A stretch of DNA of 64,000 nt, from NCBI GenBank assembly GCA_038320885.1, contig JBBQER010000003.1, forward strand, positions 11,794 through 75,793, written 5' to 3'. The notes beneath the pieces are model-generated. The model saw only the letters and a list, made by a program, of their open reading frames with translations. It searched no databases and had not been told where the DNA came from. Position 1 is the first letter of the stretch; each line of letters opens with the position of its first letter. Of this stretch, positions 20,181 through 48,365 are shown piece after piece. Made by a program: the position numbers and the translations under genes. This DNA is from Acidimicrobiia bacterium. Its GTDB lineage: Bacteria; Actinomycetota; Acidimicrobiia; IMCC26256; PALSA-610.

Positions 20181-20186
20181 TACAGT
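20181..20186 (+). promoter_or_regulatory. candidate -10 hexamer TACAGT, 7 nt upstream of the ATG at 20194 (leaderless candidate)
   Basis: TAnnnT hexamer, no SD. Confidence 0.35.
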
Positions 20187-20193
20187 CCTGCGG

Positions 20194-21447: not shown

Positions 21448-21503
21448 CCTCGGTGGCCCTGCCGTTGGACCTTGTTCTGCCGTCTCTCGTGCAAGGAGAA
21501 ATC

Positions 21504-21878: not shown

Positions 21879-21911
21879 GTCTTGAGTCCGCTTTCGACGG
21901 ACCGAGCCCAA

Positions 21912-21917
21912 TAGCCT
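21912..21917 (+). promoter_or_regulatory. candidate -10 hexamer TAGCCT, 7 nt upstream of the ATG at 21925 (leaderless candidate)
   Basis: TAnnnT hexamer, no SD. Confidence 0.3.
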
Positions 21918-21924
21918 GACCGGC

Positions 21925-24102: not shown

Positions 24103-24193
24103 GTGACTCGGGCGATGAGTCCCGAACGCGATGCGTTCCATGGTGACGTGGCCTAGCGTGTCGGCGGAAAGCGGCCGCTGTAGTCGGAGAGCC

Positions 24194-26699: not shown

Positions 26700-26800
26700 G
26701 CTCTCAGCGTGAAGGACGAGCCGCGCAACGATCGCGGGCGCGAGCCGATGAAGGAGGTAGCGGCCGCCATAGCCCGAGCCGGCGCTCGGTACCTGAGGGA

Positions 26801-27730: not shown

Positions 27731-27740
27731 GGGACCTTCC

Positions 27741-27857
27741 TCAGAATCCTCGATACTCGAAGGGGAAGTGCCGCAACGGTAGTCGCTGCAATGACATCAT
27801 CCGCGATGGAATCGTGAGGCCAGCGAGAGCCTCGACTTTACGTGCAAGAGCGATCAC
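27741..27857 (-). pseudogene. degenerate second DltX-like ORF (ends FEYRGF; TM segment lost; frameshifted relative to the ancestral GTG)
   Basis: Aligns with 29099-29221 from EA... to the stop (30 codons, same length). The hydrophobic core is replaced by R-containing sequence, and the GTGCGTGA-coupled start frame hits TAA after 7 codons. Confidence 0.3.
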
Positions 27858-29077: not shown

Positions 29078-29098
29078 CGGACTGTCCGGCGTGCCATC

Positions 29099-29221
29099 TC
29101 AGAAGCCCTGATATACGAAGTGCACGGTTGTAACCGTCGTCGCGGCAACGACGATCAAGAGGACTGCTATCAGGAGGCCAATGAACGCCTCAGCCACCCA
29201 CTTGCGAACGCGATCACGCAC
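29099..29221 (-). CDS. DltX-like 40-aa membrane peptide with C-terminal FxYxxF motif
   Basis: Not in the ORF track because it is under 60 aa. GTG start overlaps the upstream stop (GTGCGTGA). VRDRVRKWVAEAFIGLLIAVLLIVVAATTVTTVHFVYQGF*: positive N-terminus, one TM segment, terminal FVYQGF. Confidence 0.55.
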   Translation of the reverse strand: MRDRVRKWVAEAFIGLLIAVLLIVVAATTVTTVHFVYQGF

Positions 29222-29666
29222 CGTTCGTCCCTCCGTTCTGCGAAGTGCAACTCGCCGACCTGTATTTCACCTGTGACACCAGCTGACACAGCTCTCCTGC
29301 GAGTACGGACCCAGCGGCTCTGCCCGGCGCATATGAATCACATCTTGGCGGCGGAAACTCAGTCCCGAAACGAACCTGCCGGCGGTCAGCGGTTGGTACC
29401 GGATGTTCGGGGTCGAGAAGCTCGGTTGGAGTTGCTCGAGCTGGTGCTCGATGCCACGGACTTCGTTGTCGAGAGGCTTGCTCGTCTCGAGGAAAACGCG
29501 GTTGACCGGAGCATCGTAAACGTAACTGGGAAGCCTCGACTCCCGGAGAGCCTTGGCGATCGCTCGCAAGATGATCTTGTTGATCCCGCTCCTTCCTTCG
29601 TTCGACTGGTGCATCCACTGCGCCCACCGGAAGGGCGCGCCGCGGATCCGTTGATGCGTTGATCAT
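29214..29666 (-). pseudogene. internally deleted, frameshifted copy of the DltD-like gene
   Basis: DNA homology to the first roughly 11 codons of 27854-29077 (ATGATC..ATCAACGGAT.CGCGGCGCG). It then jumps to the C-terminal third, which is read in a different frame (GINKIILRAIAKALRESRLPSYVYDAPVN...QDVIHMRRAEPLGPY) and returns for GELCQLVSQVKYRSA. Confidence 0.7.
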
Positions 29667-30889
29667 CGGAGACCCAGCAGCGCGGAGTAGAAGTGTCCGA
29701 GTTGGCCGAGGTGGAGCGTGAGCATCGGGATACTGACCGCGACGTACACGAACACGAGGGTGGCCTTACCGATCGACAGCCATCGCGAGGGTTCAGTCGC
29801 GGCCGGTCGGACTTGGTTGAGCAACCGGGCTCCGATAAGAGCGCATGAGTGGTAGGTGCCGAATATCACGAGCGGAACCGTGATGTCATGCCATAGCGCG
29901 ATCGTCATCATCGTGGCGGCGATGGCGAGATACTGCGACCGTTGACGCATACCGCCGAGCGGAACGAACACGTTCCGTCGCGCCCATCGGGTCAAGCTCA
30001 TATGCCAGTTGTTCCAGAAATCCTGCGGGTTGGTGCGCGTGAAGGGTCGGCTGAAGTTCGGCTTGAGGCGGAAGCCGAAGAGGCGCGCGGTGCCGATGGC
30101 GAGATCGGAGTAACCAGAGAAGTTGAGGTAGAAGAACCACGTGTACATGAAGAGTTCGATCCAGAGCACCAACGCGCCGTTGGTCTTGTACAGCACGAGA
30201 ACGTCGCTGCTGCTCGCGAGCGGGACCGCGAGGACGAACACTTTGAGCACTCCGACGATGACCTGGGTGAACGCTGCTCGGTAGTCCTCGAGCTTCAACC
30301 CCTCCGTCTTCTGGGACTGCGCGTACACCTCGGAGTACTCGATAACCGGCCCGATCACTTGGACCGGCGGAAAAAATCCGTAAAACAGCACGTGCCCAAG
30401 CGGTTGGCGGGGAATGGTGCCGAGGAAGGACTGCACCAGCAGATCAACGGCGCGGAAGGTCGCGAACGAGAGCCCGATGGGCAGGATGATCGGACGGATC
30501 GAGTCGATCGTTCCTGCCACGTTGGAGATCTGCCAGAGCCGGTTGTTCAAGAAGACATTGAACGAGATCGTGAAACTTGCGGGGCGAAGCTTCCAAAGCA
30601 CCATCGGTGCCAATGTCGCGAGAATGGAGATGCTGAGAACGTGCGGGCCCCACTTGTGCTCGCCGCTCCACGCGACGACACGTTGTAGCGTCGCGACCGC
30701 CACCCAGAAGGCGAGGTAGAACAAAGCGAGCCGAGGCGCGACCAGCACAAGCAGGTATGCGCCGGCGAGCGTGAGCAACGTTCGGCGGGCCCATGCCCAC
30801 GGCAGAACGTAGAAGAGTGGCACCAGGACGAGACACAGCGCGAAGAAGTCTGCGAAGAAGTCGAATGCGCTCGGTCCGGTCGTCGGCAC
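29663..30889 (-). CDS. MBOAT family O-acyltransferase (DltB/AlgI-like)
   Basis: FWNNWHMSLTRWARRNVFVPLGG and ALWHD His motifs. Polytopic, 408 aa. Confidence 0.9.
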   Translation of the reverse strand: MPTTGPSAFDFFADFFALCLVLVPLFYVLPWAWARRTLLTLAGAYLLVLVAPRLALFYLAFWVAVATLQRVVAWSGEHKWGPHVLSISILATLAPMVLWKLRPASFTISFNVFLNNRLWQISNVAGTIDSIRPIILPIGLSFATFRAVDLLVQSFLGTIPRQPLGHVLFYGFFPPVQVIGPVIEYSEVYAQSQKTEGLKLEDYRAAFTQVIVGVLKVFVLAVPLASSSDVLVLYKTNGALVLWIELFMYTWFFYLNFSGYSDLAIGTARLFGFRLKPNFSRPFTRTNPQDFWNNWHMSLTRWARRNVFVPLGGMRQRSQYLAIAATMMTIALWHDITVPLVIFGTYHSCALIGARLLNQVRPAATEPSRWLSIGKATLVFVYVAVSIPMLTLHLGQLGHFYSALLGLR

Positions 30890-30892
30890 TGG

Positions 30893-32677
30893 TCATCGAG
30901 CCAGGGTGATGTGCGCGGGCGTCTGTGGTCGGCCTTCGCGGAGGTCCAATCGGAACAGTCCCGGGAACGCGCTGTCGGCTTCGAAGCCGTGGTCGGCGTA
31001 GAAGGTCGCGACCTGGCCGTTCTTGCGCGTGGCCTCGTAGTGGCCGACCAACGAGGTGACACCTCGGGCAACCGCGTCGTCGGCGATCGCGGTCAGGAAT
31101 GCGGTCTCGACGCCGCGCCCCAATACCCGGCAGCTCATCAGGAAGGTGTCGATGGTCGAGGCGTCGGCACCGTGATCGACGATCGCCACGCCGACGATTC
31201 CGTAGTCGCCGAATCGGTCGCTCACTTGAATCGCCCACACGTCATGCGCCGGCGATTGCACGAGTTGCCGGATCTGACTCTCGTCGCGACGGATCGTCGT
31301 GACGTTGAACTGATTGGTCTTGTTCGTGAGCTGCGCGACCCGGGTGACGTGATCGTCGGAGACGCTCGAGAAGATCACTCGGAGCTCGAGCGACGCGAGG
31401 AACTGCGGGCGGTCCATCGTCTTCAGCTGCGTCCGGCGTTTCGCTTCCGACTGCATCATCTCGGTCCGCTGGCGATCTTCGCCGGAGATCCGGACGCGCC
31501 GGAAGAGGCCCGACTCGCTCAACAGGAACGGCAGCTCGGCGAGCTCTTCGGGAACCTGCAAACAGCGGAGCTCGGGGAACGCGGCGGAGACCTCGGCGAT
31601 CTCGAAAGGGCTGTCGTCGACGAACACGAGGCTGTCGACGCCGATGTTGAGCTCCGCCGCGATCGCCCGGATGCTCTCCGACTTCGGCTGCCAGTGGATC
31701 TGCCGCGTCGCGATGTCGGCGAGCGTCAGCACCATTCCTTCGTGGCGCTCGAAGACGTCGAGCACTTCGGCTTCGCTGTTCTTGGTCGCGAGGGCGAGCA
31801 TGAAGCCGCGCGACTTGAGCGTTTGCAACTCGTGCTGGAACGCCTGGAACGCGCGCCCGGGGAACGTGTCACCGAGCTGCAGGCCGCCGAGTCCGTCCTC
31901 GCCGACGATGCCGCCCCAGAGTGTGTTGTCGCAGTCCAACACGATGCACTTGGGCGGCGGCGTGGTGCGGCGTACCACCACCTCCGCGATCTGCGCGCCC
32001 AGCTCGAGCCAGAAGTCGCCCCGGTACGGCTGGCGGTACATCGCCCATTTCTGCGTGTCGAACACCTGTGACTCGCCGGCGAGGCGTTGGAGCGCGTCGA
32101 GATCGACGATCTCCACGAACGGCGCCGACGCGAGGCCGTCGAGCCATGCCGACACCGCCTCCCGATGCAACCGGCCGACGCGCAACGACGTGACGACGTC
32201 GCGGAGATCGATACCCCAGCCGCCCGGGTGCGGTGGTGTAGACGCGCAGGTCGTCGCTTTCGACGTGGAGTCGAGGTTCGCGACCAGCGAGGCGAGCTCG
32301 GCGACACCATCAAGGATCTCGGTTCCGGCCGCGTCGTCGCCGGCGAGGTAGCGCGCGAGCGGCTGTTCGAACACGTCTTCGATGCGCCAGAGCAGCACGA
32401 CGACTTCGACGTCCTCGCCGAGCATCGCCGTGGGATCGAGGCAGACCTGGTGCAGCTGGTTGTAGTCGGCGAAATGAATTTGGGGATCGGTGAATCCCGC
32501 GTCGAGCAGCAACGCGCCGGCTTGGGCTTCGACCGGCTCCGCGGTGAAGGACGCCGCGACACCAACGCTCACGTCGCCGCGGGATTCGGTTTCGCGTTGC
32601 TTGCGGTGTTGGAGCCACCGCCGTTGGTGTTCGCGCGGCGTCCGTGGTACAGAGCCTGACTCGGCGCCCACGATCAA
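30893..32677 (-). CDS. FkbH-like HAD-IIIC family protein (candidate carrier-protein loader)
   Basis: HAD motif I VLDCDNTLWGG, ATKNSE, VFVDDSPFE. C-terminal GNAT-like region with FLMSCRVLGRGVE. TTGA overlap with the carrier-protein stop. Confidence 0.85.
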   Translation of the reverse strand: MIVGAESGSVPRTPREHQRRWLQHRKQRETESRGDVSVGVAASFTAEPVEAQAGALLLDAGFTDPQIHFADYNQLHQVCLDPTAMLGEDVEVVVLLWRIEDVFEQPLARYLAGDDAAGTEILDGVAELASLVANLDSTSKATTCASTPPHPGGWGIDLRDVVTSLRVGRLHREAVSAWLDGLASAPFVEIVDLDALQRLAGESQVFDTQKWAMYRQPYRGDFWLELGAQIAEVVVRRTTPPPKCIVLDCDNTLWGGIVGEDGLGGLQLGDTFPGRAFQAFQHELQTLKSRGFMLALATKNSEAEVLDVFERHEGMVLTLADIATRQIHWQPKSESIRAIAAELNIGVDSLVFVDDSPFEIAEVSAAFPELRCLQVPEELAELPFLLSESGLFRRVRISGEDRQRTEMMQSEAKRRTQLKTMDRPQFLASLELRVIFSSVSDDHVTRVAQLTNKTNQFNVTTIRRDESQIRQLVQSPAHDVWAIQVSDRFGDYGIVGVAIVDHGADASTIDTFLMSCRVLGRGVETAFLTAIADDAVARGVTSLVGHYEATRKNGQVATFYADHGFEADSAFPGLFRLDLREGRPQTPAHITLAR

Positions 32678-32910
32678 ATTCCTGCAACGCCTTTGGCTTT
32701 GAGGACGCTGCGGGCGAGCGCGATGCTACGCATCTTCATGATGTCCCGCGTGCTGAGCGAGACGTCGAAGCTGTCCTCGATCAGCGTGACGAGATTCATG
32801 GCGGCGAGGCTGTCCCACTCCTCGACGGTGTCGGGAGAGCTCTCCTCGTTGAGGACGTCGGTGCTGAGCCCGAGCCCTTCGGCGAATATCTCGAGCAGTG
32901 GGTCCGCCAT
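32674..32910 (-). CDS. acyl/peptidyl carrier protein (DltC-like position)
   Basis: 78 aa, phosphopantetheine attachment motif EEWDSLAAMNLV. First gene of the operon. Confidence 0.85.
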   Translation of the reverse strand: MADPLLEIFAEGLGLSTDVLNEESSPDTVEEWDSLAAMNLVTLIEDSFDVSLSTRDIMKMRSIALARSVLKAKGVAGI

Positions 32911-33003
32911 TACGGCACCTTTTCAGTTCGCGAGTTTCTTCCCACGAATCCCGCCCGGGAGGGACCGTCGAGGCGCGTTGCACCTGGTCGAATGTACCAA
33001 CCG
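32911..33003 (-). promoter_or_regulatory. promoter plus roughly 85-nt conserved 5' leader of the Dlt-like operon (copy X1)
   Basis: -10-like TACATT (plus strand AATGTA, 32991-32996). Hairpin GGTGC-AAC-GCGCC (32972-32984). About 75-80% identical by eye to 40064-40157. Confidence 0.4.
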
Positions 33004-33106
33004 GAGGCACCAATGAGCACGCTGGGGAGCGAGTCGAACGAGTTCGTCGCCCAGTTCGTCGCGACTACCGTTGCCCGATCCGAGACCCGATCTGCCGGAG
33101 GAATCG

Positions 33107-34039
33107 ATGGCCGATGAGCCCGAACCGGTCTCCCCGCTGTTCGAACCGCTGGGTGCCCTCGAGTTCGAGTCGACGGCGTGCCCGATATGCGGAGCAACCC
33201 AGGTAGACAAGCGGCTGCAGAAGACCGTGCAAGGAGTCGGGACGCATTACGGCGTCTGCACGAATTGCGGAACGCTCTACGCGAACCCCCGGTTGACGGT
33301 CGAATCCCTGCGGACGCTGTACAGCTCGCAGGAGTTCTTCGAAGGCAAGCAAGGCAATCTCAACTACTACTCCTTCCTCAGTGGTGAGGACTATCTCCGC
33401 AAGACCGCTCGCGGCCGGATCCATCGGTTCCAGAAGTACGCGCGGGGGAAGCGATTGCTCGAGGTCGCGTCGGCAGCGGGATTCTTCCTCGCCGAGGCCG
33501 CCGCCGCGGGATTCGAGGCGGAGGGTGTCGAATTCTCGAGGCCGATGGCGAGGTACGCGTCCGAACGTTGGGGCGTGCCGGTCACGGCGGGATCGATCGA
33601 GGAAACGGAGCTCGAAGCGAACGCATATGACGTGATCGCCTCGTGGGGTGTCATGACGATCATTCGTGATACGAAAGCGTTGATGAAGAAGTTCAACACC
33701 GCGCTGAAGCCGGGTGGAGTCTGGGCGTTCAACACCTACGACAACCGGTCGCTCTGGGGTCGGGCGTTCGGTGCTCGCTGGTACATCCTCGTCCCCAACA
33801 CCAGTCAGATCCACTGCGACAAGACGTTGCGGCGTCTCCTCGACGAGGCTGGGTTCGATCTCGTCGCCCGGCGCCGGGACCGTCCCCATGCGAGTGTCGA
33901 GCGGCTGGCGTTCGTGTTGCTGTCGCATCTGAGCCATGGAGTGCGCGACAGGTTCTTCGAGCGCGTCCACTTCTTGAACCGGTTGATCGTTCCCCTCCAA
34001 GCGCCGGATGCGTTCGAATACGTCTGCGTCAAGCGGTGA
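33107..34039 (+). CDS. SAM-dependent methyltransferase with N-terminal Cys4 zinc ribbon
   Basis: GGAGGAA RBS. CPICG...CTNCG. Motif I LLEVASAAGFF. Intact paralog of 24194-24849. Confidence 0.8.
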   Translation: MADEPEPVSPLFEPLGALEFESTACPICGATQVDKRLQKTVQGVGTHYGVCTNCGTLYANPRLTVESLRTLYSSQEFFEGKQGNLNYYSFLSGEDYLRKTARGRIHRFQKYARGKRLLEVASAAGFFLAEAAAAGFEAEGVEFSRPMARYASERWGVPVTAGSIEETELEANAYDVIASWGVMTIIRDTKALMKKFNTALKPGGVWAFNTYDNRSLWGRAFGARWYILVPNTSQIHCDKTLRRLLDEAGFDLVARRRDRPHASVERLAFVLLSHLSHGVRDRFFERVHFLNRLIVPLQAPDAFEYVCVKR

Positions 34040-35904
34040 GTGACGAATCGACGAGCCAGACGCGGGCCAGAACCGGATCGGCGATTGTCGGTGTCGCCGT
34101 ACTTGGTGCCCTCCTGACGATTGGGTTCTTCCCGGAGCTCTTCTCGCGCGCCGATGGCTACGACGACGAGGGTGCTCTCGTCGTAACCCTGCGCCAGTTC
34201 GTGAACCACGGAAGCCTCTACGACCACACGCACGGCGCGTACGGGCCCTTCTACTACTCGTTCCTCGGCTTCATCTACAAGGTGACCGGCCAGAGCCCCA
34301 CGCCTTTCAACGGACGGCTCATCGCCCTGGGTATCACCGGGTTGTCGGCCGCGTTGTTCGCGGCGACGGTCTGGAGAGTGACGCGGAGCCTGGCATTCAC
34401 GCTCCTCGCGGAGCTCGTCACGTTCTGCTTGCTGGTCGGTGTCGCCGGAAATCAGCCAACGCACCCCGGCCCCTTGATCGTCCTGCTCGTCGCGGTGTTG
34501 CTCTACGGCCTCGCGGGCTACGCCCTGGACCCGCGCACGGTGTTCCTCGTGTTCATCGGAGGGGCAACCGGCGCCCTCTTGATGTGCAAGATCAATGTCG
34601 GGCTCTTCGCCGCGACCGCCGTCGTCATCGGCTTCGTCGTCGGTAACCGGCGCTATCCGAAGACGTGGAGCAAGGCGGTGGCTGCGGCGGCGTTGCTGCT
34701 GCCGTTCCTGCTGATGGCGCAGAGGCTCTACCAGCTGGAAAAGGCACAGTTCGCGCTGCTCGTGGCCCTCGGGTTGCTCCTGACCTACGTGCCGATGCAC
34801 GTAGACGTCGTCACGCTTCCTAGACGCGCGCTGGCCACGATAGCGGTATCCGCGCTGGCACTGATGGTCGCGTCAGTGCTCTGGCCGCTCGCGGACGAGA
34901 CGAGTCCGGGCGCGCTCGTGCGGGGAGTGCTGATCCAACCGACGGCACAAGCGGAGCACCTGACCGGGCGGGCTGCGGTCACATTCGAGTGGCTCGCGTT
35001 CCTCATCACGATCGGTGTCACGTACGCAGTTCTGCTCCGCAAAGGCGGCCGTGACGTCCGGCAGCTCGTGAGCCCATGGCTCCTCAGCGCGGGTCTCGGC
35101 CTGGCCGGGCTCTACGTGCTCGGGCTCGCCGTACTACACGGAAACGTGGTGTTCCTTGCCTGGCTTCCGTCGATCGCGCTGGTTCCCGCCCTGGCCTTGC
35201 TCTCCGACGCACCGCCGAAGATACGGCTGGTACTGCGCTTCCTCATTCCCGTCGCGATCTTGCAGATTCTCCATGCCTATCCCGTGCCCGCCTCGCAGCG
35301 CGTGTGGGGACTCGTCGCGATCTGCATTCCCTGCGTGATCGCGATGGCGGTCGCCGCCGACCGCCTCGCACTCTGGCAGCGGGCCAAGCCCGGTGCGCGA
35401 GCCCTCATCATCGGAGCGCTGGGCCTCGTGTTCCTCCTCTTCGGCGGGACATCGCCGGTGAGCGCGTGGCACACCTACGCGGACCAGACACCGCTGCACC
35501 TCCCCGGCAGCCGGCTGGTGCGGTTGCCCAAGGCCCGGGTCGTCGAGTTGCGCCAGCTCACGGCTGCCGTGCGGAGTCGGTGCGACACGTTCTACACCGC
35601 GCCCGGCTTCGCCAGCCTCTACATCTATACCGGGCTCCCAACGCCGACCGGCCTCCTGGCCAACTGGCCGGGGGTGCTCGACGACCACGAGCAACGGGAG
35701 CTCGCGATGCAGCTCGCGACCTTGTCGAAGAGCGGCGAACGCGTGTGCATCGTTCGCGTCCTGGGCCGCCAGAAGGAGTGGCTTGCCAGCTCGTACGGAG
35801 CAGGACCGTTGGGTAGGTCCCTCGCGCACTACCAGGCGCGGATCGCCGTCGTCGGCCACTACTCGATCTCGGTCGAGGCAAAGACGCCGAAGCGCCCGTC
35901 GTAG
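34036..35904 (+). CDS. polytopic membrane protein, candidate GT-C-fold (ArnT/PMT-like) glycosyltransferase, copy B
   Basis: GTGA overlap with the upstream stop. YDDEGAL first-loop motif. Same architecture as 24846-26699. Confidence 0.55.
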   Translation: MSDESTSQTRARTGSAIVGVAVLGALLTIGFFPELFSRADGYDDEGALVVTLRQFVNHGSLYDHTHGAYGPFYYSFLGFIYKVTGQSPTPFNGRLIALGITGLSAALFAATVWRVTRSLAFTLLAELVTFCLLVGVAGNQPTHPGPLIVLLVAVLLYGLAGYALDPRTVFLVFIGGATGALLMCKINVGLFAATAVVIGFVVGNRRYPKTWSKAVAAAALLLPFLLMAQRLYQLEKAQFALLVALGLLLTYVPMHVDVVTLPRRALATIAVSALALMVASVLWPLADETSPGALVRGVLIQPTAQAEHLTGRAAVTFEWLAFLITIGVTYAVLLRKGGRDVRQLVSPWLLSAGLGLAGLYVLGLAVLHGNVVFLAWLPSIALVPALALLSDAPPKIRLVLRFLIPVAILQILHAYPVPASQRVWGLVAICIPCVIAMAVAADRLALWQRAKPGARALIIGALGLVFLLFGGTSPVSAWHTYADQTPLHLPGSRLVRLPKARVVELRQLTAAVRSRCDTFYTAPGFASLYIYTGLPTPTGLLANWPGVLDDHEQRELAMQLATLSKSGERVCIVRVLGRQKEWLASSYGAGPLGRSLAHYQARIAVVGHYSISVEAKTPKRPS

Positions 35905-35913
35905 GCTTGCCCG

Positions 35914-36831
35914 GTGGCGGAAGAGCAACGCGTTGATGGCGGACCCGAGTTGGAACGTCTTGCCGGTCTCGGCTGGCCGCCGCACGCGGTGCGCAGCACC
36001 GCCGCCGGCGTTCATGTCAGTGGCGACGAAGTTGGCGTGCACTACCCCGAAGGTGGGTTGGCCGCGCTCGGTCTCGACGGTGGAAGCGGGTACTGGTTCG
36101 ACCATCGAGCGCGCGAAGTCGCCGAAGCCCTCGAGGCGGCCACGGACGCCCGGTCGATCTGGGACATCGGCGCCGGTGCCGGGTCGATGTCGCTGCGTCT
36201 CTCCCGGGCCGGCTTCGACGTCGTGTCGGTCGAACCGTTGATGGAAGGCGCAGTCGCGATCGCGCAGATGCGGTGCAGCGACGTGTTCTGCAGCACGCTC
36301 GAGGGGCTTCGGCTGCCTACGCACTCCGTTCGCGTTCTCGGGTTCTTCGACGTGATCGAGCACCTTGACGATCCGCGGGCGCTGATGGAGGAAGCCCAAC
36401 GGGTCTTGGAACCGAGCGGCACGATTGTCCTCACGGTTCCGGCCTTTCAATCGCTTTGGAGCAACTCCGACGTGGTCGCAGGGCACCAGCGCCGGTACAG
36501 CCGCAAAGCGCTCGACGCGTTCATGCAGTCGTGCGGACTCCGTCGCGTGACCTCGAAGTACCTCTTCGCCTCGCTCCTCCCGCCCGCGGTGGCACTGCGC
36601 ACGATCCCGTACCGGCTCGGGCGGCGTCGCACCACCGAGGACGTGCTCGCGGCCAATGCGAAACGGCTCGCTCCGAACGCGCGCGTCGACGCCGTCGCCG
36701 CGCGGCTCATGCGCGTCGAGAGCGCAATCGCGCGGCGGTTTCCGCTCCCGGCCGGCTTGAGCGTGCTGGGTGTCTACACGACCGCGGACGCCCAGGGGAG
36801 CGAGCGGCCGAGGAACTCCTCGAGTCGCTGA
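35914..36831 (+). CDS. class I SAM-dependent methyltransferase
   Basis: Motif I IWDIGAGAGSMS and post-I DVVSVEP. 305 aa. Confidence 0.75.
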   Translation: MAEEQRVDGGPELERLAGLGWPPHAVRSTAAGVHVSGDEVGVHYPEGGLAALGLDGGSGYWFDHRAREVAEALEAATDARSIWDIGAGAGSMSLRLSRAGFDVVSVEPLMEGAVAIAQMRCSDVFCSTLEGLRLPTHSVRVLGFFDVIEHLDDPRALMEEAQRVLEPSGTIVLTVPAFQSLWSNSDVVAGHQRRYSRKALDAFMQSCGLRRVTSKYLFASLLPPAVALRTIPYRLGRRRTTEDVLAANAKRLAPNARVDAVAARLMRVESAIARRFPLPAGLSVLGVYTTADAQGSERPRNSSSR

Positions 36832-37538
36832 GTCGGCTCTCGAAAGTACTCGCGCAACCGTTCCTCGATCTCGGTGTCCACGGGTTCGTCGGTGGTTGCC
36901 GACGCGTTGACTGCGGAGCCGACCGCGGCCGGCCGGAACCTGTCGTCGACACCGAGTCGGGCGTACAGGTCGGCGACGACGCCGGCGTCGGTCACGAGCT
37001 CTTCGAACACCAACACGTGGATGAGCTCGGGCGCGGCGTGGCGAACGAGTCGCTCGAGATATTCGATGTACCGCCCGCGGGCGAGATAGGCGAACGGCGA
37101 AACCGAGAAGCGCTCGCGATCCCATGGTCGCTTCCACGCCTCCACGCGGAGGGCCTCGGAGATCGGAAGGGCTTCCACGCCGTTCTCGGCGCTGAATCGG
37201 TAGTTCGAGATCGCCCGGTGGACCGGGTCACGGAGCACCACGATGAGCGGAGCAGCCGGCAACATGGTGGCGATTCGTCGCGCGGCAACGTCCGACTCGA
37301 TGTAGCTCGTGCTCTTCTCGCCCCGCACTTGCGTTTCGGGCTCCGAGAAGAATTCAGATTCGTAGTACTCGAGTCCGCGCGCGTATCGGTCGTCGTCGAG
37401 GAAGAACTTCGGCTCGGGTCGAAGCGGTTTTGCCATCTCGATCTGCGGATGCGCGTCGAGGAGGTCGCAGAGATACGTCGTTCCGCACCGCTGCGCGCCG
37501 ACGACCACGAAGTGATCGACGGGCTTCCGATCAGGCAT
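36774..37538 (-). CDS. sulfotransferase family protein
   Basis: 5'-PSB-type loop VVVGAQRCGTTYL and 3'-PB-like VVLRDPVHRAISNY. ATGCCTGA overlap with the upstream GT2 stop. Confidence 0.8.
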   Translation of the reverse strand: MPDRKPVDHFVVVGAQRCGTTYLCDLLDAHPQIEMAKPLRPEPKFFLDDDRYARGLEYYESEFFSEPETQVRGEKSTSYIESDVAARRIATMLPAAPLIVVLRDPVHRAISNYRFSAENGVEALPISEALRVEAWKRPWDRERFSVSPFAYLARGRYIEYLERLVRHAAPELIHVLVFEELVTDAGVVADLYARLGVDDRFRPAAVGSAVNASATTDEPVDTEIEERLREYFREPTQRLEEFLGRSLPWASAVV

Positions 37539-38514
37539 CCGTGCCGATCTCTTCGAGGATGTGGTACGACTCGATCTCGGTAACCTGCTTGAGCGTTCGC
37601 AGTACGTACTCGCCGAGCATGCTCAACATCAAGATGATGACCCCGTTGAGGAACGACAACAACACGATGATCGTGGTGAAACCGGTGACCTGCGAGTCGC
37701 CGAGCAGGTGGCGGACCATGAATCCCAGCCCGACGACGAAGCTCAGGACCGAGATCACGAATCCGATGACGGCCGAGAAGCGCAGCGGGAACAACGAGTA
37801 GCTGAACAGGATTCGCAGCACCAGGCGGCCGATGCGGATGGGGCTGTAGGTGCTCTTGCCGACGGCGCGGGGTGCATGCTCGACCTCGACGTTGCTGCGC
37901 CGGCTCGAGTAGAGCAGGGCCTGGCCGGTGATGTAAGGGTATGAGCTGCGCGACGCGCAGATCCGGTTCACCACGTCGCGGCGCAGGATCCGGAAGTTGC
38001 TGACGACGAGGTCGGCGGGCTGGCCGAAGATCCGGCGGTTCATCACGCCGATGACCTTGCTGCCGAGGTTCCGGTGCGGTGCCGCCTGCTTGCGGCGGAA
38101 CTTGCCGAACACCGCATCGGAGCCGTTCATCGCCTCCAGGATGAGGTGGATGATCTCCTCCGGCGGATTTTGCAGGTCGTCGTCCATGGTCACGACATAG
38201 TCGCCCTTGGCGGAACGGAGGCCGCAGAGATTTGCGTTGTGCTGGCCGTAGTTCCGGAGCAGGTTCATCGCGCGCACGTGCGGGTAGCGCTCGGCCGCGT
38301 CCCGCACCACGTCCCACGATCCGTCGGTGCTCCCGTCGTTGACCAGGATCACCTCGTACCGGAGCCGGTTCGTCTCGAAGAACGCGACCGTCCGCTCGAT
38401 CGTCGTCCCGACGATGGGCTCGCTGTTGAACACGGGGATCACGACCGAGTACAGGAAACTGTGCATGTCCAGCGGCGCGGCCGCCGGCTGGGGGCGAGGG
38501 TGCGCCAAGCTCAT
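37531..38514 (-). CDS. family 2 glycosyltransferase, ArnC/GtrB-like polyprenyl-phosphate sugar transferase
   Basis: VVIPVFNSE...ILVNDGSTDGS...MDDDLQNPPEE plus two C-terminal TM helices. Start taken at MSLAHPRP, 19 nt after the aminotransferase stop. Confidence 0.85.
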   Translation of the reverse strand: MSLAHPRPQPAAAPLDMHSFLYSVVIPVFNSEPIVGTTIERTVAFFETNRLRYEVILVNDGSTDGSWDVVRDAAERYPHVRAMNLLRNYGQHNANLCGLRSAKGDYVVTMDDDLQNPPEEIIHLILEAMNGSDAVFGKFRRKQAAPHRNLGSKVIGVMNRRIFGQPADLVVSNFRILRRDVVNRICASRSSYPYITGQALLYSSRRSNVEVEHAPRAVGKSTYSPIRIGRLVLRILFSYSLFPLRFSAVIGFVISVLSFVVGLGFMVRHLLGDSQVTGFTTIIVLLSFLNGVIILMLSMLGEYVLRTLKQVTEIESYHILEEIGTDA

Positions 38515-38533
38515 TCGACCGAACTCATTTCGA

Positions 38534-39694
38534 TCAGTCCCGGGCCCGGGTCCGACCGGCGACGAGTGCTGCGCGGAACACACCGACGACCCGCTCGGCA
38601 TCGTCGTTCGAGAGATTGTTGTGGAACGGCAGCCGCAGCAACCGGCCGCTCACGTCGTCGGTTACCGGGCACTCCGTGGGGCGAGCCGCGAACTTGGCAG
38701 CCGCGGGCGCGCTGTGGAGCGGAACGTAGTGGAACGTCGGGTGCACACCGTGCGCGCACATCGATTCGATCGTTGCATCGCGCGTCCGGCGGTCGGGGAG
38801 CAACACATAGAACATGTGGTACGCCTGATCGCGGTCACCGGGCACGACCGGGAGCTGGAACGAGAACTCCTCCGCTATGGGCTCGAGGAGGCGCCGGTAG
38901 TTCTCCGACACCGCCCGGCGCTTCCTGAGGATCACCGCTCGCTGTTCGAGCTGCCCGTAGAGGTACGCGGCCAACACCTCGCTCAGGCCGAACGAAGACC
39001 CGATGTCCTGCCACGAATACTTGTCGACCTGACCGAGCATGAACGCGCGGCGGTTCGTTCCCTTGTCGTACAGGACGTGCGCGCGCTCGGCGAACGCCGC
39101 GTCGTTGACGATGAGAGCGCCGCCCTCGCCGCAGATGAAGTTCTTGGTCTCGTGGAAGCTCAGCGTCGCGAATTTTCCGAGGCTCCCGAGCGGGCGCCCG
39201 CGGTAGGAGCCGAACAGTCCGTGCGCGTTGTCTTCGATGACTGCGATGTCGCGCCCGCCGATAGCCGCGTCGATGCCGGCCATGTCGCAGCCGACACCCG
39301 CGTAGTGCACCGGCACTACTGCGCGCACGGAGTCGTCGAGGAGCGTCTCGAGGTGGGCCGGATCGAGACCGAGTGTCTCGCGCTCGATGTCGCAGAACAG
39401 GAGCTTGGCGCCCTCGCGGGCAAAGGCGGTTGCCGTGCTCGTGAACGTGAACGACGGCAGGATCACGGTGTCACCCGGCTGCAGGTCGAGCAACAGTGCC
39501 GACATCTCGAGTGCCGCCGTGCACGAGGTCGTCAGGAGTACGTCGGGCGCGCCGAGCCACTCGCGCAGGAGCTCGGAAACGGCCGCGGCGTACGGCCCGG
39601 AGGAGGAGGTATGCCCCGTCTCGACCGCGGTCTGGATGTAGGCCAGCTCGTTGCCTTCGAGCGACGGTTTGTTGAAACGGATCTCGTCGGTCAT
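38534..39694 (-). CDS. DegT/DnrJ/EryC1/StrS family aminotransferase (WecE/ArnB-like sugar-nucleotide 4-aminotransferase)
   Basis: FNKPSLEGNELAYI, SFHETKN (PLP Lys). Start MTDEIRF preceded by GAGGGGG. Confidence 0.9.
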   Translation of the reverse strand: MTDEIRFNKPSLEGNELAYIQTAVETGHTSSSGPYAAAVSELLREWLGAPDVLLTTSCTAALEMSALLLDLQPGDTVILPSFTFTSTATAFAREGAKLLFCDIERETLGLDPAHLETLLDDSVRAVVPVHYAGVGCDMAGIDAAIGGRDIAVIEDNAHGLFGSYRGRPLGSLGKFATLSFHETKNFICGEGGALIVNDAAFAERAHVLYDKGTNRRAFMLGQVDKYSWQDIGSSFGLSEVLAAYLYGQLEQRAVILRKRRAVSENYRRLLEPIAEEFSFQLPVVPGDRDQAYHMFYVLLPDRRTRDATIESMCAHGVHPTFHYVPLHSAPAAAKFAARPTECPVTDDVSGRLLRLPFHNNLSNDDAERVVGVFRAALVAGRTRARD

Positions 39695-39824
39695 GCGCGC
39701 CCCCTCACGTGCCGATCCACCCGAAACGGCGCCTCCGTGAGAACCCCTCACCATCGAGCAAGGGTAGCTGCGATCCTCCCGTCCCGAAATAGGCCCGTTG
39801 CCCTGCACGGCACGTTCCGGGCTG

Positions 39825-40058
39825 CTCGCGGTCGCCTTTCAGCGCTCGTTGGGTCTCGCGTTTCGCGTCGCGTTCGGCGATGGCGAGGCGCTTGTCGTAG
39901 CGGGTCTTGCCCCGGGCGATCGCGAGCTCGACCTTCGCCCGGCCGTCCTTGAAGTAGAAGCTCAGCGGCACGAGCGTGACGCCCCACTCCTCGGTCGCGC
40001 GTGCGAGCTCGAGGATCTGCTTCTGGTGCAACAACAACTTGCGGGGCGCGCCGGGTCG
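39825..40058 (-). pseudogene. 3' fragment of an smpB gene (last roughly 75 codons), stop codon lost
   Basis: [74 protein letters not shown] aligns codon for codon with the C-terminus of 42335-42796. The N-terminal half is absent. Confidence 0.85.
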
Positions 40059-40063
40059 GCCAT

Positions 40064-40157
40064 CACGGCACCGTCTCAGTTCGCGAGTCTCCAACTACGA
40101 ATGCCGCCCGGGAGGGGCCACTGCGGAGGCGTCACGCCTGCACAATTGTACCAACCG
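40064..40157 (-). promoter_or_regulatory. second copy (X2) of the Dlt-like operon promoter and leader, now upstream of the smpB fragment and the aminotransferase-GT2-sulfotransferase operon
   Basis: -10-like TACAAT (plus strand ATTGTA, 40145-40150). Hairpin AGGCG-TGA-CGCCT (40127-40139). Also retains ATGGCCGACCC, matching the ATGGCGGACCC start of the carrier-protein gene. Confidence 0.4.
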
Positions 40158-40259
40158 TCGATACGCCCTTGACCGCGAGACTCACGCGTATTCGGACCGT
40201 CGAACGGGGACGCCGCGCCGTCCGCCCGCCGAAGGTCGCCGGTTACGCTGGCGGCAAGC

Positions 40260-42320
40260 ATGAAAACGAGTAGCGCGGCGGGCGAGAGCGCGATCGGGTC
40301 GGAACCTACGGCGGCGACCTACCGCCCGCACCTCGATGGGTTGCGGGCGGTAGCCGTCTACCTGGTCGTGCTGTTCCACGCGGGCAGCAGCTGGTTCTCC
40401 GGCGGGTTCATCGGTGTCGACGTGTTCTTCGTGCTCTCCGGCTACCTGGTGACACAACTGCTCCTCCGCGACATCGTGAGCAACGGGCGCATTCGCCTCG
40501 GGCGCTTCTATTCCCGACGATTCCGGCGGCTGTTGCCCGCCGCGTTCGTGGTTCTCATCGTCACGGCGTGCGTGTACACCGCGATCGCGTCGCCGGCAGA
40601 GCAGATCGATGTGATCGGATCGTTCAAAGCGGCGTTCCTGTACTCGACGAACTGGTACTTCGTGCACCAGTCCACGGCGTACTTCGGCGCGAACATCGCG
40701 ACCAATCCGGTGTTGCATTTCTGGTCGTTGGCGGTTGAGGAGCAGTTCTACGTCGTTTGGCCCTTGACGCTCACCGGGGCATTCGTGCTGACCCGACGAT
40801 GGGATCGCGCCAAGCAGCTGCGCATGATCGGGGCGGTCGTTGCCGTCGGCGTGCTTGGCTCCGCTCTGTTCGCGTTGTCACTCAAGTCCGGTGATCCGAA
40901 CCGCGCCTACTACGGAACCGACACCCGCGCCTACGAGCTGCTCGCCGGCGCGTTGGTCGCACTGGTTCCTTCAATCGTGGCGACCGCGCGGCAACGTCGC
41001 GGCCAAATGCGCGCCGCGACGATCGCGAGCATCGCCGCGCTCGGCGTGCTGGCTTCGTCATGGGTTCATCTCGACGCCATCGAGCGCGGCATCGCGGTGA
41101 CGATCACGACGGTCGTGCTCATCGTCGCGCTCGAAACGGCCGACGGCGGCATTGTGAAGCGCCTTCTCTCGACTCGGACAATGACCTACCTGGGCAAGAT
41201 CTCGTACGGCACGTACCTGTGGCACTGGCTCGTTATCCTCGTGCTCCTCAAGACCTTCCACCCCAGCACGCTCGCGACCATCGGCATCGCGTTCCTCGTC
41301 GCCACCGGCCTCGCATCCCTCAGCTTCGACCTGATGGAACACCCGATCCGGGCCTCGCAACGCCTCGACCGACATCGGGGAGCCGTGATCGCGCTCGGTT
41401 TGACCGTGACGGTGGTGAGCGCGCTCGTGTTGGTGCCCTCGATACTCGACGATTCGCACGCCGGGGCCGTGGGAGTCGCCGGATCGGTGACAAGCGGCGT
41501 CGCGCCGGTTCCGGCCGGGCTCGACTGGAGAGCAGTCAAGCGGGAAGACCGGAGCGCTCCCACCTGCTTCGCCAAGCCGCTGACGAAGTGCGTCGTCGTG
41601 CACGGGACCGGCAAGACGGTCGCGCTCATCGGCGACAGCCACGCGCAAATGCTGATTGCGCCGATGACTGAGATCGCCAAGGCCGAGAATTGGACGCTGG
41701 CGGTGCTCATCTGGAACGCCTGTCCGTGGCAAGACGGGCTCTGGCGCTTCACGGCTGCGAACCGGCGGAGCTGCCTTGCCTGGAAGGCCGATCTACGCAC
41801 CCGCGTGATCCCTCGACTGAACCCCGACGTCGTCGTGTTGATACACGCGCCGATGGACCGCGAAGGGTTGAAGGGCCAGCACCTCGGGGGACCGGACGGC
41901 CCGCTCGCGACGGGCTCACCGGCGGCCGAGCGAGCCATTGAGGCCGCGACCGACAAGACGGTTGCACGCCTCAGCGCGAACCGTGACGTGGTGATCATCG
42001 AGCCGATTCCGCAGGGCCCGCCGGGCTATGACCCTTTGGGATGCCTTTCGACAGCGCGCTTCCTCGACCAGTGTCGCTTCGTCGCGAGCGCCTCGCCTTC
42101 GCCGACGGAGCAGCACTACCGCGCCCTTGCACGGTCCTCGGATCACGTGTTCGATCTCGACATCGACCGGTTGGCCTGTCCCTATCTCCCCATCTGCGAC
42201 CCGGTGGTCCGCGGCAAGATCGTCTGGTACGACCTCTCGCACCTCTCGATCGCGTATTCGCGTACGCTGGCAGAGCCGATTCGATCGCTCTTGACTGCCG
42301 ACGGGATCGGATCCGGTTAA
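40260..42320 (+). CDS. acyltransferase-3 (OafA/YrhL-like) membrane domain fused to a C-terminal SGNH domain
   Basis: YRPHLDGLRAVAVYLVVLFHAG...VDVFFVLSGYL (AT3). VALIGDSHAQM (SGNH block I). 686 aa. Confidence 0.85.
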   Translation: MKTSSAAGESAIGSEPTAATYRPHLDGLRAVAVYLVVLFHAGSSWFSGGFIGVDVFFVLSGYLVTQLLLRDIVSNGRIRLGRFYSRRFRRLLPAAFVVLIVTACVYTAIASPAEQIDVIGSFKAAFLYSTNWYFVHQSTAYFGANIATNPVLHFWSLAVEEQFYVVWPLTLTGAFVLTRRWDRAKQLRMIGAVVAVGVLGSALFALSLKSGDPNRAYYGTDTRAYELLAGALVALVPSIVATARQRRGQMRAATIASIAALGVLASSWVHLDAIERGIAVTITTVVLIVALETADGGIVKRLLSTRTMTYLGKISYGTYLWHWLVILVLLKTFHPSTLATIGIAFLVATGLASLSFDLMEHPIRASQRLDRHRGAVIALGLTVTVVSALVLVPSILDDSHAGAVGVAGSVTSGVAPVPAGLDWRAVKREDRSAPTCFAKPLTKCVVVHGTGKTVALIGDSHAQMLIAPMTEIAKAENWTLAVLIWNACPWQDGLWRFTAANRRSCLAWKADLRTRVIPRLNPDVVVLIHAPMDREGLKGQHLGGPDGPLATGSPAAERAIEAATDKTVARLSANRDVVIIEPIPQGPPGYDPLGCLSTARFLDQCRFVASASPSPTEQHYRALARSSDHVFDLDIDRLACPYLPICDPVVRGKIVWYDLSHLSIAYSRTLAEPIRSLLTADGIGSG

Positions 42321-42334
42321 TTCGTCAACCCGAG

Positions 42335-42796
42335 TTACTCGCGGTCGCCCTTGAGCGCTCGCTGCGTCTCGCGTTTGGCGTCCCGTTCGGCGATTGCCTG
42401 TCGCTTGTCGTAGCGCGCCTTGCCCCGCGCGATCGCAAGCTCGACCTTCGCCCGGCCGTCCTTGAAGTAGACGCTGAGCGGTACGAGCGTAATGCCGCGC
42501 TCCTCGGTCGCGCGGGCGAGCTCGTCGATCTGCTTGTGGTGGAGGAGCAGCTTGCGCGGCCGGACCGGATCGAGATCACCCCGGGAGAACTCGTAGGGCG
42601 ACACGTGCATGCCGAACAGCCAGACTTCGCCATTGTCGATTCGGGCGTAGCCGTCTTGGAGGTTGGCGCGACCGTTGCGGATCGACTTGACCTCGGGGCC
42701 CTTCAACACGATCCCGCACTCGTAGGTATCGAGCACGAAGTAGTCGTAGCGGGCCCTGCGATTCGAGATCACGACCCGGTCGCCGCGGTTCGGCAT
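42335..42796 (-). CDS. smpB: SsrA-binding protein SmpB
   Basis: Full-length 153 aa: ...ISNRRARYDYFVLDTYECGIVLKGPEVKSIR...LLLHHKQIDELA...[23 protein letters not shown]. Confidence 0.95.
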   Translation of the reverse strand: MPNRGDRVVISNRRARYDYFVLDTYECGIVLKGPEVKSIRNGRANLQDGYARIDNGEVWLFGMHVSPYEFSRGDLDPVRPRKLLLHHKQIDELARATEERGITLVPLSVYFKDGRAKVELAIARGKARYDKRQAIAERDAKRETQRALKGDRE

Positions 42797-45817: not shown

Positions 45818-45960
45818 TCATGCCGCGGTTGCGGTCTCGTAGTCGATGGGGCTGAGCATGTTGCAGTAGCTGCGGCGGCGTTTGGGGTTGTACCAGCATT
45901 CGATCCAGTCGAAGATCGCGAGCGCGAGTTGTTCGCGCGAGTTCCGATACTGGTTCGTTC
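45818..45960 (-). mobile_element. IS3-family transposase (OrfB) C-terminal remnant
   Basis: ...REQLALAIFDWIECWYNPKRRRSYCNMLSPIDYE* matches the conserved integrase-core C-terminus of IS3 transposases. No upstream catalytic region. Confidence 0.6.
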
Positions 45961-46043
45961 CGCGAGTCGCTCCGCGATCCGGCTGAATGACCGGTCCCGG
46001 AACCACAGCTGATCCGGGCGTTTGCGATGAGTACCATCGCGTG

Positions 46044-48047
46044 ATGACGGGCGTGCAACCCGCCGTCGACGAGATCGCAGCGGCGGAGACGGGCGAGTTG
46101 GGTGCGCCGGCGTATCGGCCTCACCTCGATGGTCTGCGCGCGATCGCCGTGTACTTGGTTGTGCTGTTCCACGCGGGGAGCGATCGCTTCTCGGGTGGCT
46201 ACGTCGGTGTCGACGTCTTCTTCGTGCTGTCGGGTTACCTCGTGACGCAGCTCCTACTGCGAGACATCGACACGCGCGGCTCGATCACGTATGGCCGTTT
46301 CTATTCGCGACGATTCCGGCGCTTGTTACCGGCGGCATTCGTCGTGCTCATCGTGACGGCGCTCGTGTACTCAGCGGTCGCTTCGCCGGCCGAGGTGCTG
46401 AACGCCGCCGGGTCGTTCAAAGCGGCGTTCTTATATGTCGCGAACTGGTATTTCGTCCACCAGTCGACGGGCTATTTCGGAACGGACATCACCGCGAATC
46501 CCGTCCTGCACTTCTGGTCCTTGGCCGTCGAAGAGCAGTTCTATCTCGTGTGGCCCCTGACCCTCGGCGGCGTCTTCTGGCTGACAGGCCGCTTCGATCC
46601 CCGCCGGCGCCGGAATGCGATCCGGGTCGTGGTCGCGCTGGGCATGGCCTCGTCGGCGGTGTGGGCCCTCTCCCTCGCGACGCGGAATCCCAATCGCGCC
46701 TACTACGGCACCGACGCCCGGGCGTATCAGCTCCTCGCGGGCGCGCTCCTCGCGCTGACTCCGGCGGTCTTCGCCGGGGCCGAGCGGTATCGCCGTCGGC
46801 TTCGGATCGCGAGCGCGGCGAGCGTGCTCGCGATCTTGTTCCTCGCTTCGTCGTCGGTCGACTTCAACGCGATTGATCGTGGGATCGCGGTGACGATCGC
46901 GACCTGCGTGCTGATCGTGGCGCTCGAAGCCGGCGGTGGCGTGGCCAAATTGCTGTCGACGCGAACCGCGGTGTACCTGGGCAAGATCTCCTACGGGACC
47001 TATCTGTGGCACTGGATCGTGATCCTTGTGCTCGTGCAGACCGTCCACCCGAGCAGCCTCGCCACGATCGCTTTGGCATGCCTCATCGCGTCGGCGTTGG
47101 CGTCGCTGAGCTTCGAGATCATGGAGCACCCGGTTCGGATCTCGAAGGCGCTTGACCGCCACCGCTGGTTCGTGATCGCCACTGGCCTCACGGTGAGCCT
47201 GGTGTCGGCGCTCGTGTTGATCCCGAAGATCGTCAAGCCCGCGAACGCCGCCGCGCCGACACTGCAACTCGCAACGACCGGCCTCGCGCCGGTCCCTCCC
47301 GGGATCGACTGGCACCACGCGGACCGCGGACAACGAACCTTTGTGGCGTGCGACGAACGCGATGCGTCGAAATGCACGATCGTGCACGGCCACGGCCCCC
47401 ACATCCTGGTCATCGGAGACAGCCACGCGCAGATGTTCGTGCCGGCTTTCATCCGGATCGCTCGTCGCGACGGTCTGACCCTCTCGGTGTCGACGCGCGG
47501 GATCTGTCCCTGGGAACGGGGGTCTGCCGGACCAGGTGGGGCGTTCGTCGGACGCCCGGACCTCACGCCCGCCGGTTGCACGGCACACCAGAACGACCTC
47601 TACGACCGCGTCATCCCCGCGCTCGATCCCGACGTGATCGTGGTCGCGGACATGGGTTACGGCGACATCCTGCGCTCCGCCGCGCGCTCGGTCAGGCAAC
47701 TCACCGCTACCGGAGCAAGCGTCTTCATCATCGAACCTACCCCGCGCACACCATTCGATCCGGTGAACTGCATTTCGAAGGCGCGGTGGCTCGAGGAGTG
47801 CCGCTCGGTCGCGCCGACCACACCAAGCCCGATCGAAGTCGGCTACCGCAACATCGCGCGGCAGAACAAGGGCGTGACGTCCGTCGACTTCGATCGGCTC
47901 ATCTGCCCGTTCCTACCGATCTGCGACCCGGTCGTGAACAACCAGCTCGTCAAGTGGGAAGCGGCGCACATCACATTGAAGTTCGCGCAGACGCTCGCAC
48001 CGCAGATTGACGTCTATCTGAAGCAGACCGGCGCGATCTCTCACTGA
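46044..48047 (+). CDS. acyltransferase-3 plus SGNH O-acyltransferase, paralog of 40260-42320
   Basis: YRPHLDGLRAIAVYLVVLFHAG...VDVFFVLSGYL. ILVIGDSHAQM. Start taken at MTGVQPAV. Confidence 0.85.
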   Translation: MTGVQPAVDEIAAAETGELGAPAYRPHLDGLRAIAVYLVVLFHAGSDRFSGGYVGVDVFFVLSGYLVTQLLLRDIDTRGSITYGRFYSRRFRRLLPAAFVVLIVTALVYSAVASPAEVLNAAGSFKAAFLYVANWYFVHQSTGYFGTDITANPVLHFWSLAVEEQFYLVWPLTLGGVFWLTGRFDPRRRRNAIRVVVALGMASSAVWALSLATRNPNRAYYGTDARAYQLLAGALLALTPAVFAGAERYRRRLRIASAASVLAILFLASSSVDFNAIDRGIAVTIATCVLIVALEAGGGVAKLLSTRTAVYLGKISYGTYLWHWIVILVLVQTVHPSSLATIALACLIASALASLSFEIMEHPVRISKALDRHRWFVIATGLTVSLVSALVLIPKIVKPANAAAPTLQLATTGLAPVPPGIDWHHADRGQRTFVACDERDASKCTIVHGHGPHILVIGDSHAQMFVPAFIRIARRDGLTLSVSTRGICPWERGSAGPGGAFVGRPDLTPAGCTAHQNDLYDRVIPALDPDVIVVADMGYGDILRSAARSVRQLTATGASVFIIEPTPRTPFDPVNCISKARWLEECRSVAPTTPSPIEVGYRNIARQNKGVTSVDFDRLICPFLPICDPVVNNQLVKWEAAHITLKFAQTLAPQIDVYLKQTGAISH

Positions 48048-48258: not shown

Positions 48259-48365
48259 AACGAACGCTGCACCGGGTTCTTTGAACGTGCCGTGCGCTGG
48301 TTCGCCGAACACGGGATCACGATCGAACGAGTCCTGACCGATAACGGCATCGGTTACCGCAGCCG
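48259..48365 (+). mobile_element. IS481-family transposase internal remnant
   Basis: FFERAVRWFAEHGITIERVLTDNGIGYRSR matches the DDE-domain segment of IS481-type transposases. Only about 35 codons remain. Confidence 0.55.

Follow-up and report, generated by a model that had tools for sequence, protein, structure and literature searches.

We describe here the structure and probable origin of a displaced piece of smpB in the genome of an uncultured member of the Acidimicrobiia. The window is the whole stretch of 64,000 nucleotides that was analyzed, and it derives from an 81-kb contig (C3) of a MAG (G000) that is 89% complete, comprises 157 contigs and has an estimated contamination of 4.2%. We compared it with relatives, including four of the same genus (G001–G004), and with metagenome contigs, among them Ga0105245_10200631 (L133) and Ga0193729_1093644 (L138). 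The resident smpB gene (42335–42796, minus strand) is an intact open reading frame encoding 153 residues, with orthologs in 41 of 41 relatives. Reading onward from it, the first gene is an AT3-SGNH O-acyltransferase gene (40260–42320, plus strand; Pfam Acyl_transf_3 and SGNH) that is convergent with smpB and is the sole gene between the two smpB 3' ends. It is followed by a copied leader (leader copy C) and the smpB fragment (39825–40057, minus strand), and downstream of these is an operon encoding a DegT aminotransferase, a GT2 glycosyltransferase and a sulfotransferase (36774–39694, minus strand; Pfam), a module that is accompanied by methyltransferase and GT-C-like genes. Beyond the DegT module are leader copy B and an intact ACP gene (32701–33003, minus strand; Pfam PP-binding), which head a Dlt-like FkbH-MBOAT operon, and the region is bounded on its far side by mmpL (21925–24102, plus strand; Pfam MMPL), a core gene that is also convergent with smpB. 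The tmRNA gene ssrA (19741–20093, minus strand) is situated 22 kb downstream of smpB and is co-oriented with it; it is intact and unduplicated in G000, as judged by ARAGORN and by Rfam (RF00023, 133.8 bits).

The fragment corresponds to codons 76–153 of smpB and lies on the same strand as the intact gene at a separation of 2.3 kb (start-to-start spacing of 2513 nt), as an earlier, sequence-only reading of this DNA had proposed. It matches the Pfam SmpB profile (PF01668) with an E value of 3.4e-24 over profile positions 70–142 of 143, and tblastn aligns it with resident residues 74–153 at 86% amino acid identity; the nucleotide identity is likewise 86%, with 219 nt aligned. Nei-Gojobori counting over 73 codons gives 19.0 synonymous and 11.0 non-synonymous differences, close to the approximately 17 synonymous and 7 non-synonymous codons that the sequence-only reading had counted by hand, with seven amino acid differences, a dS of 0.479, a dN of 0.070 and a dN/dS of 0.146. 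The last 20 residues are the same in the fragment and the resident SmpB protein, and the longest exact run shared by the two copies, which form repeats of 234 bp, is 35 nt long and is located away from the junction. The GC3 of the fragment is 0.91 and is core-like. Alignment also agrees with the earlier reading that the TAA stop codon of the resident gene is replaced by CAG (39822–39824), and this former stop together with about 22 nt of post-stop spacer (39800–39824, minus strand) resembles the spacer between smpB and the leader in L138. BLAST aligns window positions 39800–39998 with L138 positions 202–3, extending past the former stop, with a spacer identity that is weak (22 of 37 positions).

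A functional SmpB gene has a full-length beta-barrel and a C-terminal tail within one open frame, and what we find here is a partial profile match, a frame broken after codon 80 relative to the sole ATG, and a lost stop codon. The 129-residue open reading frame at 39705–40094 should be annotated as a pseudogene fragment and not as an SmpB paralog. Comparisons across the family found a second piece of smpB in 0 of the 62 other family genomes, and we note that one unpublished genome (G059) is counted only as one negative in the 62-genome tallies. A terminator-like hairpin was called inside the fragment (39960–39975, minus strand) and is probably a chance match in coding-derived sequence.

At its 5' end the fragment is joined to the beginning of a carrier-protein gene, and the junction reads ATGGCCGACCC (40053–40063). 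The sequence-only reading had recognized this near copy of the ACP start as an 11-mer, and the similarity proves to be longer: about 105 nt containing the promoter, leader and ATG upstream of the ACP gene (32900–33003) recur at 40053–40158, with 84% identity over 67 nt, 76% over 93 nt, and a longest exact run of about 14 nt. The G000 genome contains no further copies of this promoter and leader beyond these two. Leader copy C (40064–40158, minus strand) includes the ACP promoter (TGGTACAAT) and a leader of about 85 nt, and is 76% identical to copy B and 82% identical to the L138 leader. Adjoining it (40051–40063, minus strand) are the remnant of the ACP start, ATG GCC GAC CC, and the junction microhomology CGACCCGG (40051–40058). 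ACP gene starts read ATGGC(C/G)GA(C/T)CC(A/G) and the smpB of L133 reads CTCGACCCGGTC at the matching place, such that the sequence CGAYCCG(G), of about 5–8 nt, is common to ACP codons 2–4 and smpB codons 75–78; it encompasses the GA(C/T)CCGG microhomology reported previously. In this respect the joint is typical of those made at microhomologies.

The reading frame across the junction is informative. From the copied ATG, the sequence ATG GCC GAC CCG GCG CGC CCC specifies M-A followed by D76-P77-(V78A)-R79-P80 of smpB, and because of this the ACP start codon must at first have been in frame with smpB codon 76. The run at 40043–40046, which is C5 in L133, is one C short. This is the 1-nt deletion that had been noted earlier as breaking the frame, and the frame is consequently lost, leaving a 33-residue nonsense peptide. 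A sigma-70 consensus scan of positions 39600–40400 returned no promoter, which is uninformative since the scan does not cover actinobacterial extended -10 promoters. For the 85 nt that separate leader copy C from the point where G003 homology begins (40159–40243), no counterpart was found in G003, in L138, at any locus compared or elsewhere in the genome, and for the 130 nt between the fragment and DegT neither the relatives nor the G000 genome provided one.

The interval between smpB and mmpL has a different content in different relatives. The site is empty in G004 and L133, where smpB and mmpL are convergent and about 60–85 nt apart, and in G003 it contains the AT3-SGNH acyltransferase gene alone, which is syntenic and has 80% amino acid identity, without the fragment. 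Neither AT3 nor mmpL is present in G001 and G002. In L138, smpB is followed by a 44-nt spacer and then by leader, ACP and FkbH (L138 1–1154; 91% amino acid identity for ACP and 73% for the FkbH-like protein). The sequence-only reading had suggested comparison with close relatives for an absent segment, and blastn synteny identifies one: an envelope-modification island of 16.15 kb (24090–40243) that is absent from G001–G004 and L133, is what G000 has in addition to G003, and lies outside the smpB repeats. The composite arrangement of island plus fragment is present in G000 only, among the relatives and metagenome contigs compared, and the island genes have GC3 values of 0.76–0.86, as against 0.88–0.91 for core genes. 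From these comparisons we regard the smpB-mmpL gap, of roughly 70 nt, as a variable hotspot in which different lineages of this genus carry different envelope-modification cassettes.

There are further differences among these genomes at and around the site. In G001 and G002 (L022/L024), smpB and ssrA are not adjacent, and an NDH-2-type oxidoreductase gene and a small gene are situated between them (compare 19741–24102 of the window). The smpB gene of G003 (L025, G003:C6, 10163–10622) is split into two frames corresponding to codons 1–51 and 52–153, and mmpL and a fucosidase gene in that genome are each split into two HSPs; these split genes probably reflect long-read homopolymer errors in that assembly.

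The modules of the island are found in few other settings. The DegT-GT2-sulfotransferase trio occurs in another genome (G022) at 76, 70 and 57% amino acid identity, respectively, where it does not adjoin smpB and where a methyltransferase gene is upstream of the DegT homolog, with no leader. The same unit recurs in other Acidimicrobiia MAGs and in Nocardioides (L053, L065, L075, L077, L079 and L085), in two gene orders and never next to smpB. Among GTDB species representatives, smpB lies within 6 kb of DegT at 0 of 80 DegT loci, and a DNA-level search of the family genomes also found no smpB-DegT adjacency. Leader and ACP are absent from the other 62 family genomes (63 were searched including G000), close homologs of FkbH were not found in 264 genomes of the order, and outside G000 the Dlt-like operon and its leader were seen in the metagenome contig L138 but nowhere in those 264 genomes.

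The history of the fragment can be approached through its relationship to intact smpB genes. Its closest sequence is the intact smpB of L133, with 91% nucleotide identity overall and 95.5% over codons 81–117, and two residues that are otherwise specific to the fragment are common to the L133 gene. The dS between fragment and L133 is 0.28, compared to 0.48 between fragment and resident, a value that is within the genome-wide divergence of G000 and G003 (dS 0.35–0.8), and dN/dS is 0.15–0.17 against both the resident and L133. Maximum likelihood analysis, on 219 nt of signal, pairs the fragment with L133 (aLRT 89, UFboot 86) and places the resident gene with G003. A tree constrained to make sisters of the fragment and the resident gene is worse by 9.05 lnL, and with only these 219 nt the rejection of that constraint is marginal (AU p=0.0495, KH p=0.077). 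The ratio of non-synonymous to synonymous differences is 0.58, in contrast to about 1.5 expected for a copy dead since a local duplication (P=0.003–0.008).

The changes present in the fragment alone have a different character. They include H87Q, R100W, V109F, A127T, Q133L (by two nucleotide changes) and the conversion of the stop codon to CAG, giving seven non-synonymous changes and at most one synonymous; the replacements are radical and affect residues at which a set of 21 SmpB genes shows little or no variation. This set conforms to neutrality (P=0.38) and departs from purifying selection at an omega of 0.1 (P=2.5e-4). Because the fragment groups with the intact smpB of another lineage, and because its own changes are almost all radical, it appears to have once worked elsewhere and to have decayed recently, with a long functional history followed by about 3% of decay. 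The sequence-only reading had likewise held that the fragment evolved as a working gene in another lineage rather than decaying in place, and it had named two outcomes that would contradict it, namely sister 3' ends with a dN/dS near 1, or both copies in relatives without any insertion. The calculated dN/dS is 0.146, the fragment falls with L133 and not as sister to the resident, and no insertion-free relative carries both copies, so that this part of the earlier interpretation stands.

The two leader copies provide a second view of the same event. Over the 93 nt compared, copies B and C are 76% identical, whereas B and C are 84% and 82% identical, respectively, to the leader of L138. Since each copy is thus closer to the leader of L138 than to its counterpart in G000, both repeat pairs are likely to predate the event that brought them together. 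Neither the smpB pair nor the leader pair has the sister-copy relationship that a local tandem duplication leaves, on a test that is marginal. The equal level of divergence in the smpB and leader pairs fits an origin in two lineages. The backbone of G000 is more distant from L133 than the fragment is, a hint that it was the fragment and the DegT module that were imported. We also considered whether the resident smpB is itself chimeric, as its identity to the L133 gene declines from 93% to 88% at about codon 72; the same 5'-to-3' drop is seen in all pairs of relatives, and it was therefore rejected as evidence for a chimera, so that no clear breakpoint is apparent within the resident gene.

We think it probable that the fragment is a scar left when two diverged versions of a single chromosomal locus recombined, and illegitimate recombination is our best reading of it, in preference to the arrival of an integrase-borne element. 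One parental version (X) would have had the order smpB, AT3, leader and ACP onward, and the other (Y) would have had smpB, a short spacer, the DegT module, leader and ACP onward. These parental arrangements (smpB-AT3-leader-ACP, and smpB followed by DegT) are in no genome or contig examined, and it is we who infer them, as well as the direction of transfer and the route by which DNA entered. Exchange between X and Y would have involved one ordinary homologous crossover in shared flanking DNA and a second, illegitimate crossover that joined the X-type ACP gene, at codon 4, with the Y-type smpB gene, at codon 76, through the shared CGAYCCG(G). The outcome would be exactly the order that G000 shows at present, with an intact smpB, AT3, leader C with its ATG, smpB codons 76–153, the DegT module, leader B and an intact ACP gene. 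The in-frame fusion would briefly have encoded a C-terminal half of SmpB equipped with a promoter, and the 1-nt deletion, the five radical replacements and the loss of the stop codon would later have destroyed it.

A process of this type has been described. Homology-facilitated illegitimate recombination joins foreign DNA at 3–10-bp microhomologies beside a homologous anchor, and has been documented in laboratory transformation experiments with Acinetobacter, Streptococcus pneumoniae and Pseudomonas stutzeri, as summarized in a passage of PMC6382021 that cites de Vries and Wackernagel 2002 and Meier and Wackernagel 2003. The novel joint in G000 is at a microhomology in this size range. The features in common would be DNA from a diverged relative, one homologous crossover, a second join at a GC-rich microhomology of 3–10 bp, and no dedicated recombinase; the difference is that the process was seen in the laboratory, whereas here we infer it from a footprint left in nature, in the MAG of an uncultured member of the Acidimicrobiia.

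The setting of the scar also has parallels. At integrase-free hotspots of gene exchange one pair of core genes flanks varied accessory cassettes, and empty sites exist. Similarly, smpB and mmpL flank different cassettes in different lineages, with empty sites among them. Such hotspots are usually scarless because both crossovers are homologous, but in G000 one illegitimate crossover would have left a datable pseudogene. It is rare for the trace of a natural illegitimate recombination between related bacteria to be resolved in such detail, and this one offers a junction defined at the base level, a datable pseudogene, and alternative arrangements of the site in relatives. The scar is nonetheless the product of an ordinary process and holds no surprise for specialists in genome evolution.

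An alternative is that slippage or unequal crossover at the microhomology, in an ancestor resembling L138, produced an in-place tandem duplication of a segment of about 450 bp that ran from smpB codon 76 to ACP codon 4. AT3 and the DegT module would then have been inserted later in one spacer copy each, and allelic replacement would have hidden the sisterhood of the copies. We consider this unlikely, but it has real attractions. In L138, smpB, the 44-nt spacer, the leader and ACP are naturally adjacent, duplication of the stated segment would give both the observed junction and the order of leader C and fragment, then leader B and ACP, and the number of events is similar to that of the two-lineage model. 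It is the divergence data that weigh against it. The ratio of non-synonymous to synonymous differences (0.58) is well below the value of about 1.5 for a copy dead from the outset (P=0.008), the fragment groups with L133 and not with the resident gene (AU p=0.0495), leaders B and C each resemble the L138 leader more than they resemble one another, and the decay of the fragment itself (about 3%) is small relative to the 14–24% divergence of the repeats.

The sequence-only reading had favored an integrative element that targets the 3' end of smpB and brings a surrogate 3' end with it, and this is the part of it that has fared poorly. We judge it very unlikely that an integrase-mediated island or prophage inserted at this site and later lost its integrase. 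The 3' end of the gene is indeed directly repeated, the repeats differ chiefly at synonymous sites, the truncated copy lies downstream of the intact one, and the neighboring ssrA is a classic island target. At the icd gene of E. coli, e14 and phage 21 bring surrogate 3' ends, with an integrase and defined att sites, and there too an intact gene and a displaced 3' fragment lie at a distance and have mainly synonymous differences. However, in those cases the element lies between the repeats, whereas in G000 there is a single acyltransferase gene between them, a chromosomal gene start adjoins the fragment, and an integrase is not matched. Genes for tmRNA (ssrA) and tRNA serve as integration sites for islands, and in G000 accessory DNA is situated between smpB and ssrA, but the duplicated piece comes from the protein-coding gene smpB, and ssrA is intact.

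Three further considerations bear on the integrative element. First, the search for an integrase beyond the window, as had been proposed, gave no match on the 81-kb contig C3 to Phage_integrase (PF00589), Resolvase (PF00239), rve (PF00665) or DDE_Tnp_1 (PF01609), which have matches elsewhere in the genome, so that a recombinase of these types is present neither within nor beside the putative element on this contig. Second, the DNA between the repeats is not the unit that is absent from relatives, as G003 has the acyltransferase gene without the repeats, and the segment that is missing (24.09–40.24 kb) is not bounded by the smpB copies. Third, the outer boundary of the fragment is not an att arm or an element end; it is a truncated chromosomal gene start, with promoter, leader and the first 11 nt of the ACP gene, and L138 shows this partner as a chromosomal neighbor. 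It is because of the lack of a recombinase match, the lone acyltransferase gene and the abutment of the fragment on a natural neighbor of smpB that we regard an integrase-borne element as unlikely, and a literature search on smpB as an integration site returned nothing relevant.

We attach a very low probability to the idea that selection maintains, or for a long time maintained, the fusion carrying the C-terminal half of SmpB as an expressed and functional paralog, which would account for a low dN/dS. In its favor, codon 76 was joined in frame to the ATG of the ACP gene, with its promoter and ribosome-binding region, the fragment and the resident agree in all of their last 20 residues, and the only frameshift falls in a homopolymer, where it may be an error of sequencing. 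Nonetheless, the five replacements (R100W, V109F, A127T, Q133L and H87Q) are at invariant or near-invariant residues among the 21 SmpB genes, loss of the stop codon adds about 40 residues after the tail, and the grouping with L133 accounts for the low dN/dS without selection on the fragment. A more speculative proposal, to which we give little credence, supposes that the recombination made an in-frame gene, equipped with promoter and leader, for the C-terminal half alone, with its ribosome-entering tail; the frameshift, the stop loss and the radical replacements (seven of eight unique changes) might then represent selection silencing a dominant-negative inhibitor of trans-translation and not simple drift or, if the homopolymer deletion is an assembly error, a truncated protein might still be made. 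Finally, an assembly chimera of two strains or species co-occurring in the sample is scarcely credible, for although the MAG has 157 contigs and 4.2% estimated contamination and the junction is in the G000 assembly only, assemblers join at long exact repeats, the junction shares about 8 nt, which is far below any assembler k-mer and so should not be an assembly join, the longest exact runs are about 14 nt in the leaders and 35 nt in the smpB copies, off the junction, and the fragment bears decay mutations of its own.

If the scar was formed by illegitimate recombination between two versions of the locus as we propose, it has potential consequences for expression. The fragment is today non-coding DNA and would be transcribed from the copied promoter as a long 5' leader of the DegT-GT2-sulfotransferase operon, and that operon and the Dlt-like operon probably have control regions of one type. 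Events of this kind can give a second operon a copied version of a promoter and leader that already exist. The 234-bp repeats, with their 35-nt identical run, could also recombine, which would delete AT3 and leave a hybrid but intact smpB. More broadly, the locus illustrates how envelope-modification modules are shuffled at one integrase-free hotspot in uncultured Acidimicrobiia, with a Dlt-like acylation operon, an amino-sugar/GT2/sulfotransferase module and AT3 acyltransferases all represented.

Two other features of the region may be mentioned. Positions 24196–26699 and 33106–35904 contain a cassette of a methyltransferase gene and a gene for a membrane protein of about 620 residues, arranged as a direct repeat with 71–80% identity that brackets the Dlt-like operon; its divergence is similar to that of the smpB and leader pairs, to which it adds a third. 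On the other side of smpB, a second AT3-SGNH paralog (45987–48047) is flanked by short transposase stubs recognized by translation alone, one resembling the C-terminus of an IS3-type OrfB (45818–45960, minus strand) and the other an IS481-type DDE segment (48259–48365, plus strand), and the interval from 45.73 to 48.36 kb is absent from G003.
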